From positions 1 to 49,373 of the forward strand of contig JAYSSO010000010.1 in the NCBI GenBank assembly GCA_043720495.1: a stretch of 49,373 bases of DNA, read 5' to 3'. The notes beneath the pieces are model-generated. The model did not search any database. It saw only the letters and a program-made list of their open reading frames with translations, and was not told where the DNA came from. Numbering within the stretch: the first letter of the stretch is position 1; every line of letters starts with the position of its first letter. Shown here piece after piece: positions 3,581 through 6,421 of the stretch. The position numbers and the translations under genes are program-made. Source of the stretch: Candidatus Lloydbacteria bacterium. Its GTDB lineage: Bacteria; Patescibacteriota; Minisyncoccia; Phycocordibacterales; UBA6899.

Positions 3581-6421
3581 ATGCGGGAGTATAACCATAA
3601 AAAAATTGAGGAAAAGTGGCAAAAAGAGTGGGCTACGTCAGGGCTACACAAGGCAGAGACTGACTCTCAAAAGCCAAAGTGCTACGTGCTTGATGAGTTT
3701 CCGTACCCATCCGGTGATGGTTTACATACAGGGCATACGCGTATCTACACTGCAAGTGATATTTATGCTCGCCTGAAGCGCATGCAGGGCTTTAATGTAC
3801 TCCACCCCAGTGGTTGGGATGCATTTGGTCTTCCAGCGGAGCAATACGCTATAAAGAATCAGGTACACCCAAGCGACTCGGTCAAAAAAAATACGGACCG
3901 ATACAAAATGCAAATGAACCGCGTTGGTTTATCCTATGACTGGGACAGGGAAATAAATACTACCGACCCAGCTTTCTATAAATGGACACAATGGATATTT
4001 TTGAAACTCTTTGAGCGTGGTTTGGCATTTGAATCGTACGAACCTATCAACTGGTGTCCCTCCTGCCAGACTGGGCTTGCAAATGAAGACCTTGATGGCG
4101 ATGTGTGCGAGCGCTGTGGAACAAAGGTAGAAAAGAAGCCGATGCGTCAGTGGGTACTGCGCATCACTGCATATGCGGACCGTCTTATCGATGATCTGAA
4201 TTCACTTCCGGAGTGGCCAGATGCGGTGAAAGATGCACAACGAAACTGGATAGGGAAGAGTGCGGGTGCAGAGATAGAATTTTTGCTCACAGGGATTCCT
4301 GGACAACAGGACGGCTCCCACTCTGTGAAAGTTTTTACAACCCGACCCGACACACTTTTTGGAGTAACGTTCCTGGCTATTTCTCCAGAGCTAGGAAATA
4401 AATGGATTGATGCTGGATGGCAAGTTGAAAAAGACGTGCGAGCCTACATGTTGCTCACCCTCGAACGAAGGAAACAGGAAACCTACAAGGACAATCCAGA
4501 AAAGACTGGGATATTCACCGGGATATACGCAATCAATCCGGCGAATGACGAAAAAATTCCTGTCTGGGTGGTGAACTATGTGCTCGGGGATGTGGGCACG
4601 GGGGCTATTATGGCGGTGCCTGCACACGATGAGCGTGATAATGCTTTTGCAAAAAAATATGAGCTTCCCATTATTTCGGTTATTGAGCCTGTGACGGGTA
4701 CACCGCAAGTGAACCCCGAGATGCGAAAGAGTATCGTTGCGATTCTTAAAAATAAAGCAGGAGAGTTGCTCTCGCTCAACTGGCGCAGAGAGGGGGGGAA
4801 CCTCTTCGTGGGTGGTGGTCGCGAAAATGACGAGGACATCGTTGCGTGTGCCATTCGTGAGATAGAGGAGGAAACGGGCTACACCAACATCACCTGCATT
4901 GCACAGACCGGCGTAATTCATCACCAGTATTTTGCTCACTCCAAGGGTGTTGCGCGTAATATTGACGCACATGGACTGCTTTTTCTCCTTAATGATGAAA
5001 CAAGAACGGCAACTACGCTTGAGAAAAGCGAAGAAGGAAAATTTACTCTCGAATGGCTCGCAGAAAGTGTCGCACGGGAGCGTGTGAAAGATGAACTCCA
5101 CCAGACATGTTACCAGCTCCTTGTTAGAGAGCAGGTCTATGCTGGGGACGGCATACTCGCAAATTCTGGGCAGTTTACGGGCATGAACAATCGGGATGGA
5201 GTGAATGCAATCACCACGTTTGCAAAAGGAAAGTTGGTGAATACCTATAAACTGCGTGATTGGGTTTTTTCAAGACAGCGATATTGGGGTGAACCTATTC
5301 CCATCATTCATTGCGAAAAGGATGGCGCAGTGCCGGTACAAGAGAAAGACCTTCCTGTTCTGCTTCCTGAAGTAGATTCCTATGCTCCTACAGGCACTGG
5401 AGAGTCACCGCTCGCACTCATTACGGAGTGGGTGAATGTCATGTGCCCCGTCTGCAGTGGTCCGGCAAAACGAGAGACAAACACTATGCCGCAATGGGCT
5501 GGTTCTTCTTGGTACTACCTAAGGTTTATGGATCCGCACAATACCCAAGCACTCGTCGGTGTAGCTGAAGAAAAATATTGGTCGCCCGTGGATGTATATG
5601 TTGGGGGTTCAGAGCATGTCACGCGTCACCTCATCTACGCACGTTTTTGGCATAAGTTTCTCTATGACATTGGCGTCGCATCTACCAGTGAACCCTTCAA
5701 GCGTCGTCGGGGAGTCGGACTGGTGCTCGGAGAGGGAGGCGTGAAGATGAGTAAACGTTTAGGCAACGTGATTAACCCGGACGATGTGATTGATACATTT
5801 GGAGCTGACTCGCTCCGCGTGTATGAGATGTTCATGGGCCCGTTTGGGCAGGCGATACCTTGGTCTACGGACAACCTTATTGGTGCACGAAGGTTCATCG
5901 AGCGTATTTGGCGACTGAGTGAAAAAGTTGGTGACAGCGCGACAGTGGTGATGGTAGATAAAGAAACTGAACTCATGCACCATCAAACTATTAAAAAGGT
6001 GGGTGACGATATTGAGGGGTTTGCGTTTAATACTGCAGTTGCACAGCTGATGACCTATCTCAATCATCTAGAAAAACTTCCGTCCGTATCAAAAAAATCA
6101 TACGAAGAATTGCTGTGTCTGCTCGCGCCGTTCGCTCCTTTTGTTACTGAAGAACTGTGGCGAGCAATGGGCCATACTGAATCAATTCACGCATCTCCCT
6201 GGCCCACTTACGACAATACAAAAATGATTTCTGAGACAATCACTATCGGCATTCAAGTCAACGGAAAACTGCGCGACACGTTGATAATTGCACGAGACAC
6301 ACCTCCAGATGAGGTAAAAAAGCTCGCTTTGGAACGTGAGGCGGTGATGAAGTGGGTGGGGGATAGTACACCAAAGAAAGTCATTTATATTTCAGAAAAA
6401 ATAGTAAGTATCGTGTTGTAA
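3581..6421 (+). CDS. leuS: Leucyl-tRNA synthetase with an inserted NUDIX hydrolase domain
   Basis: 946 aa. It has the class I 'HTGH' (HIGH-type) and 'KMSKRLGN' (KMSKS) motifs. CP1 editing motifs 'TTRPDT' and '[15 protein letters not shown]' are present, as is '[17 protein letters not shown]'. A ~135-aa NUDIX insert lies at nt ~4721-5131. Confidence 0.97.
   Translation: [946 protein letters not shown]

Follow-up and report, generated by a model that had tools for sequence, protein, structure and literature searches.

The window, a stretch of 49,373 nucleotides from a Candidatus Lloydbacteria bacterium (contig JAYSSO010000010.1), carries a leuS gene on its forward strand. The encoded leucyl-tRNA synthetase (LeuRS) contains a complete Nudix hydrolase domain nested within its CP1 editing domain. 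The features of the gene are as follows.

3581..6421, + strand: leuS, 946-aa bacterial-type LeuRS, host of the Nudix insert
3725..3736, + strand: HIGH motif of the synthetic site, here HTGH (residues 49-52); H49, G51, and H52 invariant in 79 aligned LeuRS
4241..4690, + strand: N-terminal part of the CP1 editing domain (residues ~221-370); PF13603 positions 1-150 match residues 221-378
4337-4354, + strand: T-rich motif TTRPDT (residues 253-258), within the N-terminal CP1 part
4595-4639, + strand: GTG...HD editing motif (with D350), within the N-terminal CP1 part
4691..5128, + strand: nested Nudix hydrolase domain (residues ~371-516, ~146 aa); PF00293, ends set by alignment with insert-less relatives
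4811..4882, + strand: Nudix box GX5EX7REUXEEXGU (24 letters, residues 411-434), found by regular expression
4919..4945, + strand: X-loop motif (residues 447-455, HHQYFAHSK), in which Y450 and K455 are conserved; an aromatic residue is kept at the Y450 position across the family
5030..5032, + strand: E484 (insert E119), acidic residue outside the Nudix box; nearly invariant in alignment A2 and invariant in alignment A3
5129..5245, + strand: C-terminal part of the CP1 editing domain plus the strand leading back into the catalytic core (together residues ~517-555); PF13603 positions 151-183 match directly after the insert
5246..6418, + strand: second half of the catalytic core (YKLRDW...), anticodon-binding domain, and C-terminal domain; PF00133, with PF08264 at residues 800-910
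5744-5758, + strand: KMSKR (residues 722-726); K722, M723, and K725 invariant in the 79-LeuRS alignment

A Nudix domain nested in the CP1 editing domain of LeuRS

The product of ORF 3581-6421 scored 943.5 bits against the bacterial LeuRS equivalog TIGR00396 (leuS_bact; cut-off, 548.4), and its full-chain AF2 model had a pLDDT of 89.7. Foldseek matched this model to E. coli LeuRS (4aq7) with a TM score of 0.77. The fold is shared with the bacterial enzymes of E. coli, T. thermophilus, and N. gonorrhoeae (4aq7, 2bte, and 7nu8; TM, 0.71 to 0.77), as are the HIGH and KMSKS motifs, the bacterial position of CP1, the T-rich motif, and the editing Asp. In CP1, residues T253, T254, R255, T258, G339, G341, H349, and D350 were invariant among the 79 aligned LeuRS. 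The enzyme looks functional in aminoacylation as well as in editing. The solved LeuRS structures that were matched have at most 876 residues and no room for a Nudix insert, in contrast to the 946 residues found here.

Within this otherwise intact synthetase, a Nudix domain occupies the CP1 surface loop. PF00293 matched the full LeuRS at residues 382-495 with 41.7 bits (E value, 1.4e-10; gathering score, 21.1) and the isolated insert with 45.6 bits. This match breaks up the alignment to PF13603, the profile of the editing domain, which stops at profile position 150 and resumes at 151. The interval from residue 340 to residue 560 comprises 221 residues, compared to 77 to 126 (most often 85) in short relatives, in which the CP1 loop has ~10 to 35 residues in place of the 146-aa Nudix fold. 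A 15-residue CP1 segment (residues 339-353) and ELPIISVI (residues 361-368) lie upstream of the insert; downstream of it, GILANSG aligns with the short LeuRS relatives and a 19-residue segment follows at residues 556-574. AF2 predicted the insert with a pLDDT of 88 to 97 inside the full protein and of 93.8 when it was modeled alone. Foldseek of the insert returned 483 PDB matches at E values of ≤0.001, of which the best 50 were all Nudix-family proteins, with a top TM score of 0.76.

The initial annotation of this DNA, which was made from the sequence alone, had described a 946-aa LeuRS with a complete Nudix domain of ~135 extra residues nested in CP1, spanning 4721-5131 (residues 381-517). 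Its length for the protein was correct, and each element of the description agrees with the results given above: the Pfam match and the confident Nudix fold, alone and within the full chain, bear out the domain; the leuS_bact score, the invariant motifs, and the structural match to LeuRS bear out the intact host; and the interval lengths bear out the size of the insert.

Conserved residues and nearest relatives of the insert

The Nudix box lies exactly at nucleotides 4811-4882, where it had been placed originally; the strict regular expression matched 23 letters of it, residues 412-434. Inserts from 25 diverse relatives, 19 to 68% identical to the query insert, were aligned. E427, E430, and E431 (insert E62, E65, and E66), together with G47 of the insert, were invariant, and R426 (insert R61), K90, and E119 were nearly so. 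The catalytic Glu residues, noted initially as intact, are not only present but invariant and under purifying selection across relatives. Because the metal-binding glutamates are conserved, hydrolase activity is predicted to be retained, and the domain most likely still catalyzes hydrolysis. E484 may serve as a further metal ligand or as a catalytic base; it presumably resembles the additional metal ligand of RppH, an acidic residue outside the box. A strict Nudix box was present in 70 of 85 long-form LeuRS. The box is degenerate in some clades (GX5Q; R changed to A, M, or K; or the terminal G missing), and the second copies of tandem pairs have no REUxEE.

The X-loop of the insert was compared with those of hydrolases of dinucleoside polyphosphates (ApnA), which are marked by a conserved X-loop tyrosine that follows the Nudix box by ~17 residues (PMC5389931). 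Y450 lies 16 residues past the box. In an hhalign comparison of the insert with human NUDT2 (93.7% probability), Y450 aligned with NUDT2 Y82 (Y87 in 1XSC numbering) and K455 aligned with NUDT2 K87. The ApnA hydrolases NUDT2 (3u53/1xsc), Aquifex aq_158 (3i7u), and Thermus Ndx1 (1vc8) have the canonical box and a close fold in common with the insert, with the Tyr and Lys aligned to those of NUDT2; they differ in that the known members are free-standing rather than nested in a synthetase, and their identity to the insert is 18 to 23%. This tyrosine correlates with ApnA activity but does not prove it.

The nearest fold, which was also the best profile match, was 2azw (TM, 0.76; profile E value, 5e-11; nearly the whole domain covered), a structural genomics entry for an uncharacterized, free-standing MutT/Nudix family protein of Enterococcus faecalis, so that the match carries no substrate information. 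Other structural neighbors were RppH (TM, 0.65 to 0.69; more than 10 entries, including the Ap4A complex 7sp3), the Aquifex Ap4A hydrolase 3i7u (TM, 0.69; rmsd, 2.9), and the Thermus Ap6A hydrolase, and the top matches also included NudI, the decapping effector AvrM14, and ADP-ribose pyrophosphatases. Weak sequence matches included Dcp2 and g5R. Identity to characterized Nudix enzymes was 15 to 23%.

The window protein scored far under the cut-offs of all NCBIfam Nudix equivalogs. Membership in the RppH family was rejected (NF001936, NF001937, and NF001938 at 11.6 to 16.8 bits; cut-offs, 116 to 139), as was membership in the MutT family: no MutT equivalog was among the NCBIfam matches, and PDB entries 1mut and 7syc aligned around the Nudix box only. 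The NadM-Nudix variants of PRK05379 (11 to 18 bits; cut-offs, 354 to 449) were rejected likewise. NadM-Nudix (NMN adenylyltransferase/ADP-ribose pyrophosphatase) is nevertheless a precedent for the fusion of a HIGH-motif nucleotidyltransferase to a Nudix domain; class I synthetases and NadM-type enzymes are both grouped in the HIGH nucleotidyltransferase superclass. Its homology to the window LeuRS is at the superfamily level only, and it is an end-to-end fusion, whereas the LeuRS has a nested insertion. The substrate of the Nudix part of NadM-Nudix is a nucleotide related to what the transferase makes (PMC7824862). NF040702 ("IleRS, N-acetyltransferase domain-containing") by its name likewise combines a class I synthetase with a small-molecule-modifying domain, with a GNAT instead of a Nudix domain and IleRS instead of LeuRS as the host.

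Distribution and association with aminoacyl-tRNA synthetases

Among species-representative genomes, LeuRS sequence flanks both sides of the Nudix domain in 78 of 80 loci. Carriers of the nested architecture include Patescibacteria and gut MAGs labeled Bacilli or Mycoplasmatota. Of the 120 top-ranking LeuRS homologues, most contained PF00293; a search with an insert profile gave 181 clusters (50% identity) at E values of <1e-30, and the arrangement was recovered from many metagenome sources (NCBI, JGI, ENA, and Logan). Some close relatives have a LeuRS entirely without the insert, indicating that it is dispensable for LeuRS function. The insert has been gained and lost often, and its evolutionary rate is ~2-fold that of the LeuRS core. 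Nested and split forms interchange among close relatives; in one of these (L089/L090), the Nudix gene lies 3 nt upstream of an insert-less leuS.

An assembly chimera or a frameshift artifact that fused a NUDIX gene with leuS would offer a trivial explanation of the locus, and a separate Nudix gene immediately upstream of an insert-less leuS, as in L089/L090, is what such an explanation could draw on. The initial annotation had named this very arrangement in orthologues as evidence for a chimera. The arrangement does exist, but it is a split form of the Nudix-LeuRS association and not a sign of misassembly. The insert is in frame and internal, with LeuRS sequence on each side and a uniform GC content (0.48 to 0.51, compared to 0.45 to 0.50 in the flanks), and AF2 folded the whole chain confidently. 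Because 78 independent genomes share the nested architecture, along with the many metagenome sources, the comparison of orthologues speaks against a chimera, which we judge very unlikely, to the point of being negligible.

The insert is a member of a distinct Nudix subfamily of small-genome bacteria that is repeatedly coupled to aminoacyl-tRNA synthetases. The same subtype was nested at no fewer than three LeuRS sites, in one to three copies per protein, with two of three LeuRS insertion sites in or at CP1, and it was also nested in a ProRS (P0299). Stand-alone members lie 2 to 13 nt from leuS (P0178 and P0211), valS (P0254), and argS (P0269). For P0237, the distance to a metG fragment is 40 nt, and L071 overlaps pth. 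A synthetase was the immediate neighbor in 5 of 12 contexts (binomial P, 1e-4 at an assumed expectation of 4.4%). The single CP1 insert to which the initial annotation had been confined was confirmed, and the link reaches further, to ProRS, ValRS, MetRS, ArgRS, and other LeuRS sites. Taken together, the nested architecture and the synthetase association are nearly certain.

Further neighbors of stand-alone members are tsaD and a SpoU methylase gene. Several stand-alone members adjoin fpg, nucleotide-salvage-like genes, or unrelated genes and not synthetases: P0223 lies 4 nt after fpg/mutM, and P0276 is flanked by ORFs that by eye are phosphoribosyltransferase-like and P-loop nucleotide kinase-like (NCBIfam gave no match). 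Near P0269 there are a dUTPase and a further NUDIX. Elsewhere in the window, 11616-12032 encodes a second NUDIX, free-standing and of a different type.

Synthetases of the same lineages also carry other, unrelated hydrolase inserts: LeuRS can contain Ser_hydrolase, HAD, or ASCH, and IleRS can contain a histidine phosphatase. The ASCH domain (PF04266), a putative RNA-binding module, is inserted in the LeuRS of one relative. P0035 and P0036 have a different, non-Nudix insert at the same LeuRS site.

The initial annotation knew of no described synthetase with an embedded NUDIX; consistent with this, no published description of Nudix-synthetase nesting or coupling was found in the literature searched.

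Candidate functions and their meaning

The explanation that we favor overall, at about an even chance, is that of a nested, synthetase-coupled Nudix domain that hydrolyzes dinucleoside polyphosphates at the synthetase. In a Mg2+-dependent reaction, the domain would hydrolyze dinucleoside polyphosphates or similar adenylylated by-products (Ap4A, ApnN). Synthetases form such compounds when an enzyme-bound aminoacyl-adenylate meets ATP or another NTP in place of tRNA. A hydrolase on or beside the synthetase could then return these by-products locally to AMP and ATP, and such recycling might prevent alarmone build-up or nucleotide loss in cells with little nucleotide metabolism. Cells obtain Ap4A mainly from synthetases and break it down with Nudix enzymes (PMC10148737). 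Hydrolysis of Ap4A had been raised initially as one idea; it is now the leading hypothesis, with some added support from the tyrosine alignment and the neighboring folds. The substrate on its own, an ApnA of the Ap4A type, is put forward tentatively, at somewhat less than an even chance. Ap4A output has been described as "low" for LeuRS, IleRS, and ValRS, as none for ArgRS, and as strongest for LysRS, PheRS, and HisRS (PMC10148737); the strongest producers are not the main partners of the Nudix subfamily, which counts against the ApnA reading, as does the fact that a substrate cannot be assigned from sequence. Degenerate boxes, insert-less relatives, and stand-alone members beside unrelated genes also count against the favored explanation as a whole.

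Several other functions were weighed against local ApnN hydrolysis. An RppH- or decapping-like pyrophosphohydrolase acting on the ends of synthetase-bound RNA or tRNA might strip a 5'-triphosphate or an Np4N- or NAD-type cap from tRNA or its precursors, or might clear a pyrophosphate or nucleotide adduct at the CP1-docked tRNA 3'-CCA end, as a form of tRNA-end repair. E. coli RppH (NudH), an RNA 5'-pyrophosphohydrolase and Ap4A/Np4A-cap hydrolase, and AvrM14 are among the best structural matches of the insert, and Dcp2 and g5R are among its weak sequence matches; moreover, CP1, which houses or borders most of the insertion sites in LeuRS, handles the tRNA 3' end, stand-alone members adjoin the tRNA-handling genes pth, tsaD, and SpoU methylase, and the ASCH insert of the relative may bind RNA. 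The likeness in fold does not, however, discriminate between this function and ApnA hydrolysis, since RppH hydrolyzes Ap4A too. Mature tRNA normally bears a 5'-monophosphate, and the RppH models of NCBIfam gave only 12 to 17 bits with cut-offs of 116 to 139. RNA-end processing is unlikely, and we place in the same range a generic housecleaning enzyme (a MutT-like 8-oxo-(d)GTPase or other NTP/NDP-X hydrolase) that is chemically uncoupled from aminoacylation, its fusion or adjacency to highly expressed essential genes being co-expression in streamlined genomes. Such a role would fit the position of P0223 directly after fpg/mutM, whose product works alongside MutT in GO repair, although this adjacency is no more than a hint from context. 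It would also fit the nucleotide-salvage-like ORFs around P0276, the dUTPase and NUDIX near P0269, the frequent gain and loss of the insert with its ~2-fold rate, and the tolerance of class I synthetases in these lineages for unrelated hydrolase inserts. Housecleaning does not readily account for the independent insertion of one subtype into ProRS and at no fewer than three positions in LeuRS, nor for the synthetase neighbors of stand-alone members (P ~1e-4), for which a functional link is otherwise hard to avoid; in addition, no MutT-type model was over threshold, and the window already has its other-type NUDIX.

Self-protection by destruction of aminoacyl-nucleotide antibiotics (agrocin-84/TM84 or microcin-C-like aminoacyl-adenylate mimics) would be in keeping, indirectly, with the several kinds of hydrolytic or modifying domains found on class I synthetases of the same lineages, with the curated NF040702 model, by which synthetase-attached modifying domains exist, and with LeuRS being the target of TM84 (PDB 3zgz). 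Nudix enzymes cleave pyrophosphate bonds, however, while the links in these compounds are phosphoramidate or sulfamoyl, and neither resistance nor biosynthetic genes lie near leuS within the window, making protection quite improbable. A non-catalytic CP1 appendage (a structural, tRNA-binding, or ligand-sensing Nudix fold) appears more improbable still. The degenerate boxes of several clades, the tandem second copies without REUxEE, and the non-Nudix insert of P0035 and P0036 at the same site could be read in its favor, but the window protein has a canonical box with E62, E65, and E66 invariant down to 19% identity, and an intact copy in tandem with a degenerate one better fits a pseudo-dimer with one active site.

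Beyond local ApnN hydrolysis in this LeuRS, a broader proposal, which we make with some reserve and consider rather doubtful, is that of a dedicated "synthetase-companion" Nudix family in small-genome bacteria. Its members would provide a third catalytic site in LeuRS and would act in cis or in trans with ProRS, ValRS, MetRS, and others on a product or substrate of aminoacylation; candidate targets are synthetase-made Ap4A/ApnN, destroyed at the source, and blocked tRNA ends, which would be deprotected.

Annotation pipelines currently label Nudix-LeuRS proteins just "class I tRNA ligase family protein," and the finding is useful there. LeuRS accepts whole domains (Nudix, Ser hydrolase, HAD, and ASCH) in its CP1 loop and at two further sites, which is useful for synthetase engineering. 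That synthetases are a source of Ap4A and Nudix enzymes its degraders has long been known; a physical or genomic coupling of both was not found in the literature searched. Fusion, nesting, and operon adjacency all indicate a synthetase-Nudix link across many Patescibacteria lineages and gut MAGs labeled Bacilli. If the companion-family proposal is true, aminoacylation would be physically coupled to nucleotide-alarmone or tRNA-end metabolism, which has not been described for any synthetase. One polypeptide with clear E-to-Q mutants provides a testable system for the role of a synthetase-attached Nudix domain and for the relevance of synthetase side products in minimal cells.

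A Nudix domain nested in the CP1 domain of LeuRS

The leuS gene of the window encodes a normal leucyl-tRNA synthetase (LeuRS) with all motifs intact. The ORF, correctly described in the initial annotation as a 946-aa LeuRS, scored 943.5 bits against TIGR00396, the NCBI equivalog model for bacterial leuS (cutoff, 548.4), and Pfam matched the LeuRS pieces PF00133, PF13603 (the editing domain), and PF08264. Invariance was scored on an alignment of 79 LeuRS relatives, which was also used to build an AlphaFold2 model of the full protein (mean pLDDT, 89.7; pTM, 0.81). The top Foldseek matches of this model in the PDB were LeuRS structures only (E. 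coli 4aq7, with a TM score of 0.77, and T. thermophilus 2bte); these have at most 876 residues and therefore lack space for an insert of this size. Minus its insert, the window LeuRS would comprise ~800 aa, the size of its short, insert-less relatives.

Features of the window LeuRS (residue invariance refers to the alignment of 79 relatives)
3581..6421 (+), leuS, 946-aa ORF
H49, G51, and H52, HIGH motif, invariant
T253, T254, R255, and T258, CP1 threonine-rich motif, invariant
H349 and D350, including the editing Asp in AVPAHD, invariant
K722, M723, and K725, KMSKS motif, invariant
4691-5128 (+), residues ~371-516, insert, delimited by alignment with insert-less relatives
4811-4882 (+), residues 411-434, Nudix box of 24 residues

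The NUDIX domain that had been proposed within this enzyme was confirmed by Pfam and by structure prediction. PF00293 matched residues 382 to 495 with 41.7 bits (gathering score, 21.1; E value, 1.4e-10) and the excised insert by itself with 45.6 bits, and the Nudix match interrupts the profile of the editing domain, PF13603, at positions 150/151. The box lies exactly where the initial annotation had placed it; the wider span that it gave, nt 4721 to 5131, corresponds to residues 381 to 517. Stretches of 10 and 12 residues flank the insert, GC content is flat over both junctions, and the interval from 340 to 560 contains 221 residues, versus 77 to 126 (most often 85) in the short relatives. In the full AlphaFold2 model the insert has pLDDT values of 88 to 97 and the strand-strand-strand-helix-strand pattern of Nudix domains. 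When the insert was modeled alone from 25 diverse inserts (pLDDT, 93.8), Foldseek returned 483 PDB matches at E values of ≤0.001, and all 50 of the matches listed were Nudix-family enzymes. The top neighbor was 2azw of E. faecalis (TM score, 0.76); many entries of E. coli RppH, including the Ap4A complex 7sp3 (0.65 to 0.69), the Aquifex Ap4A hydrolase 3i7u (0.69; root mean square deviation, 2.9), the Thermus Ap6A hydrolase Ndx1, the decapping effector AvrM14, and NudI were also matched. A tighter insert profile had no match in the PDB at E values of ≤1e-6. Every testable criterion of sequence and fold places the host in the bacterial LeuRS family and the insert in the Nudix superfamily; membership of the insert in RppH, MutT, or NadM-Nudix was ruled out by curated models.

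The box glutamates, which the initial annotation had reported as intact, are indeed retained. In 25 inserts that are 19 to 68% identical to that of the window, G47, E62, E65, and E66 (insert numbering) were invariant, and R17, G48, R61, K90, and E119 were nearly so; in LeuRS numbering, the conserved residues include E427, E430, E431, R426, K455, and E484. A strict Nudix box was present in 70 of 85 long (insert-bearing) forms, which were full-length LeuRS hits found without bias toward the box. The exceptions form partly degenerate clades (GX5Q; R replaced by A, M, or K; terminal G lost), and the E..EE core was kept in all LeuRS clades with a degenerate box. A count of intact boxes in 79 of 80 genome loci was set aside because the scan pattern itself demanded REIxEETGY. 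The mean p-distance was 0.64 for inserts versus 0.37 for LeuRS cores, so that the insert evolves about twice as fast. The box glutamates have thus been kept despite divergence elsewhere in the domain. Together, the alignments and models show a complete predicted Nudix fold with conserved putative metal ligands, and they support the initial interpretation of the LeuRS-Nudix architecture.

A separate NUDIX gene lies elsewhere in the window, directly after a Mur ligase gene (10243-11607).

11616-12032 (+), stand-alone NUDIX gene, 138 aa, PF00293 at 58.4 bits
12029-12586 (+), RNase_T-family exonuclease gene, its start overlapped for 4 nt by the NUDIX gene

The possibility that the insert is a recent duplicate of this gene was rejected, as their similarity is limited to the Nudix-box signature (BLASTP E value, 0.068). 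Upstream of leuS, the gap to ychF (2877-3580) is ~700 nt, unusually long for this compact window. No relic of a stand-alone Nudix gene was found in it by tblastn, and no RNA leader or T-box was detected upstream of leuS, an Rfam scan of the window yielding tRNA-Gln only. The gap contains small minus-strand ORFs (e.g., 3090-3344), a minus-strand GC-rich, terminator-like hairpin (3054-3037), and, by eye, a long, perfect-looking inverted repeat just past ychF (~2905-2960). Directly downstream of leuS, a 356-aa protein (6560-7630, +) shows an unusual pairing of Sigma-70 region 4 with HARE-HTH. The AlaRS of the window (21667-23556, +) has just 629 aa and stops right past the tRNA_SAD editing domain, and thus apparently lacks the C-terminal (C-Ala) region; a typical bacterial AlaRS has ~870 aa. 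A type IV pilus-type ATPase (37063-38787) and a glycan-metabolism cluster (44065-48689, +) with a GT4/starch-synthase-like glycosyltransferase, a GH57 enzyme, and a GH15 glucoamylase-like enzyme were also observed.

Distribution and history of the insert

Most of the best 120 LeuRS homologues have 930 to 980 aa and carry PF00293 in precomputed annotation; their source assemblies (NCBI, JGI, ENA, and Logan) are named Paceibacterota, Vogelbacteria, or Patescibacteria. When one genome per GTDB species was scanned with the tighter insert alignment, 80 loci were returned, and LeuRS sequence flanked the Nudix domain on both sides, at the same site, in 78 of them. Recurrence on this scale shows that the architecture is not an assembly chimera, the possibility that the initial annotation had raised against itself. 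Among the loci, the Patescibacteria labels included Paceibacterota, Parcubacteria, Uhrbacteria, Taylorbacteria, Buchananbacteria, and Minisyncoccia. Unexpectedly, ~30 loci (within L004 to L061; e.g., L022, L026, and L061) came from animal-gut metagenome-assembled genomes deposited as Bacilli, Tenericutes, Mycoplasmatota, or Erysipelotrichaceae, with L061 being CP091739.1, a 1.53-Mb chromosome labeled Clostridium sp. Their inserts are a distinctive GT[IR]...HHYYAY version of the domain, and their occurrence raises the question of whether Patescibacteria and reduced-genome Firmicutes have exchanged the architecture.

An exhaustive search of representatives with the insert profile found 181 clusters (50% identity) at E values of <1e-30 and 822 at E values of <1e-10. 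In a word-indexed homologue search, the insert alone returned one fragment and the insert profile returned mostly fragments.

Long and short forms were interleaved on a crude neighbor-joining tree of LeuRS cores. The cores nearest to that of the window include those of Nudix-bearing relatives (P0002 to P0004) and of short ones (P0009, P0022, and P0030), all at a p-distance of ~0.30, and the insert of P0004 is just 22% identical to that of the window. Insert and core distances were uncorrelated (r = −0.03, over a narrow distance range). We read these sequence comparisons as pointing to decoupled histories of insert and core; they suggest repeated gain, loss, or replacement of the insert at the same site, the number of events not being claimed. 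Two Lloydbacteria LeuRS proteins of 921 aa (P0035 and P0036) have an unrelated insert of ~110 aa in the same CP1 loop, with neither a Nudix box nor a Pfam match, and the site therefore tolerates insertions.

Association of the Nudix subfamily with tRNA synthetases

The best 149 representatives from the insert-profile search were sorted by architecture. The majority were LeuRS or LeuRS fragments, in which two further insertion sites were seen, one where CP1 begins (past query residues ~209 to 248) and one after residues ~580 to 625. A single LeuRS can contain up to three Nudix copies (P0151, P0152, and locus L057), and tandem pairs combine one intact-box copy with one that lacks REUxEE. One representative among the best 150 hits, P0299 (643 aa), is a ProRS (PF00587, PF03129, and PF09180) with this Nudix subtype at residues 398 to 515, between the anticodon-binding and ProRS C-terminal domains. 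Stand-alone members have 154 to 207 aa and the same extra motifs as the insert; 12 of their genomic contexts were inspected.

Genomic contexts of stand-alone members of the Nudix subfamily
P0178, 2 nt upstream of a 951-aa LeuRS with a Nudix domain of its own
P0211, ends 3 nt before a short, insert-less leuS, a split form of the window arrangement
P0254, 4 nt upstream of valS (766.7 bits; cutoff, 704) and preceded by tsaD
P0237, 40 nt upstream of a metG fragment
P0269, 13 nt downstream of argS, with an IleRS two genes further on
L071 gene, in overlap with the end of pth and two genes from hisS
Remaining contexts, fpg, PAP2 phosphatase, another NUDIX, salvage-like ORFs, HAD/GH77, or nothing notable

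The gene order at P0178 (YchF, DUF5671, Nudix, leuS) echoes that of the window, in which YchF (1779-2876) precedes leuS. A synthetase was the immediate neighbor in 5 of the 12 contexts, for which the binomial P value is 1e-4 at an expectation of 4.4%, which assumes ~20 synthetase genes among ~900, and 4e-3 at a conservative 10%. The tie of this subfamily to synthetases is nonrandom and many-sided, and fusions and gene neighborhoods alike support a synthetase-associated Nudix family.

Other hydrolase domains were observed in synthetases of the relatives. Five LeuRS proteins of 1,141 to 1,278 aa (P0021, P0095, P0080, P0037, and P0058) have a serine (alpha/beta) hydrolase domain (PF06821/PF12697), located at residues ~590 to 820, after the RYWGEPIP region, in the three that were scanned (P0021, P0095, and P0080) and taken from the precomputed Pfam list for P0037 and P0058. 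Some LeuRS proteins of this group thus contain two different hydrolase domains. In P0092 (1,153 aa), the Nudix domain is immediately followed, within the CP1 loop, by a HAD phosphatase domain (PF13419, residues 514 to 669), and P0110 (1,056 aa) has an ASCH domain (PF04266, residues 635 to 732) at the downstream site. At L093, an IleRS (4094-6498, +; ileS equivalog, 649.7 bits) encoded two genes downstream of a stand-alone Nudix-subfamily member contains an inserted PF00300 domain at residues ~521 to 690, with histidine-phosphatase-superfamily, cobC/dPGM-like matches.

The nearest architectural precedent is NadM-Nudix, in which a HIGH-motif nucleotidyltransferase and a Nudix domain are joined end to end (PMC7824862); another is a synthetase bearing an appended modifying domain, as in the NCBIfam IleRS with a GNAT domain. 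In the literature searched, no account of a Nudix domain within or next to a synthetase was found, and a large survey of the Nudix clan mentions neither tRNA nor synthetases (PMC5389931). Public sequences are named "leucyl-tRNA synthetase" or "class I tRNA ligase family protein," with the Nudix domain marked by automatic Pfam annotation, so that the architecture is visible in databases yet, as far as could be found, unstudied. Both modules are well known; their nested arrangement appears to be undescribed in the literature searched.

Candidate substrates of the insert

Because the association covers several synthetases, the relevant chemistry is probably shared by aminoacylation generally rather than specific to leucine editing. 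In the absence of tRNA, synthetases make Ap4A and other ApnN from enzyme-bound aminoacyl-adenylate and ATP, and these products are hydrolyzed asymmetrically by Nudix enzymes, RppH and Aquifex aq_158 among them (PMC10148737). Our tentative choice of substrate, plausible though short of probable on sequence and modeling grounds, is a dinucleoside polyphosphate (ApnA) of the Ap4A type. The nearest folds include RppH and hydrolases of Ap4A and Ap6A, and the insert carries the tyrosine marker of ApnA hydrolases: in an hhalign comparison with human NUDT2 (93.7% probability; E value, 2e-7), the X-loop residue Y450, which lies 16 residues past the box and is conserved in the family, aligns with NUDT2 Y82, and K455 aligns with K87. 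NUDT2 Y82 is the Y87 of 1XSC numbering that marks ApnA hydrolases (PMC5389931). Against an ApnA substrate, Ap4A production is "low" for the Leu, Ile, and Val synthetases and nil for ArgRS (PMC10148737), the top structural neighbor, 2azw, is uncharacterized, and every curated Nudix equivalog model scored far under its threshold.

The RppH folds among the neighbors would also suit an RppH-like action on tRNA or RNA ends, which we consider rather unlikely. We have the same doubt about a housecleaning enzyme for which the synthetase is just a carrier, a view that has to accommodate the recurrent pairing with synthetase genes. Detoxification of aminoacyl-nucleotide antibiotics seems improbable, and a noncatalytic module, which would sit poorly with the invariant box glutamates, more improbable still. 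An artefact can practically be dismissed for an arrangement that recurs across species. If ApnA is the substrate, the insert would act on a side product of its own host's class of enzymes, and the LeuRS-Nudix system makes the long-discussed link between synthetases and Ap4A directly testable.
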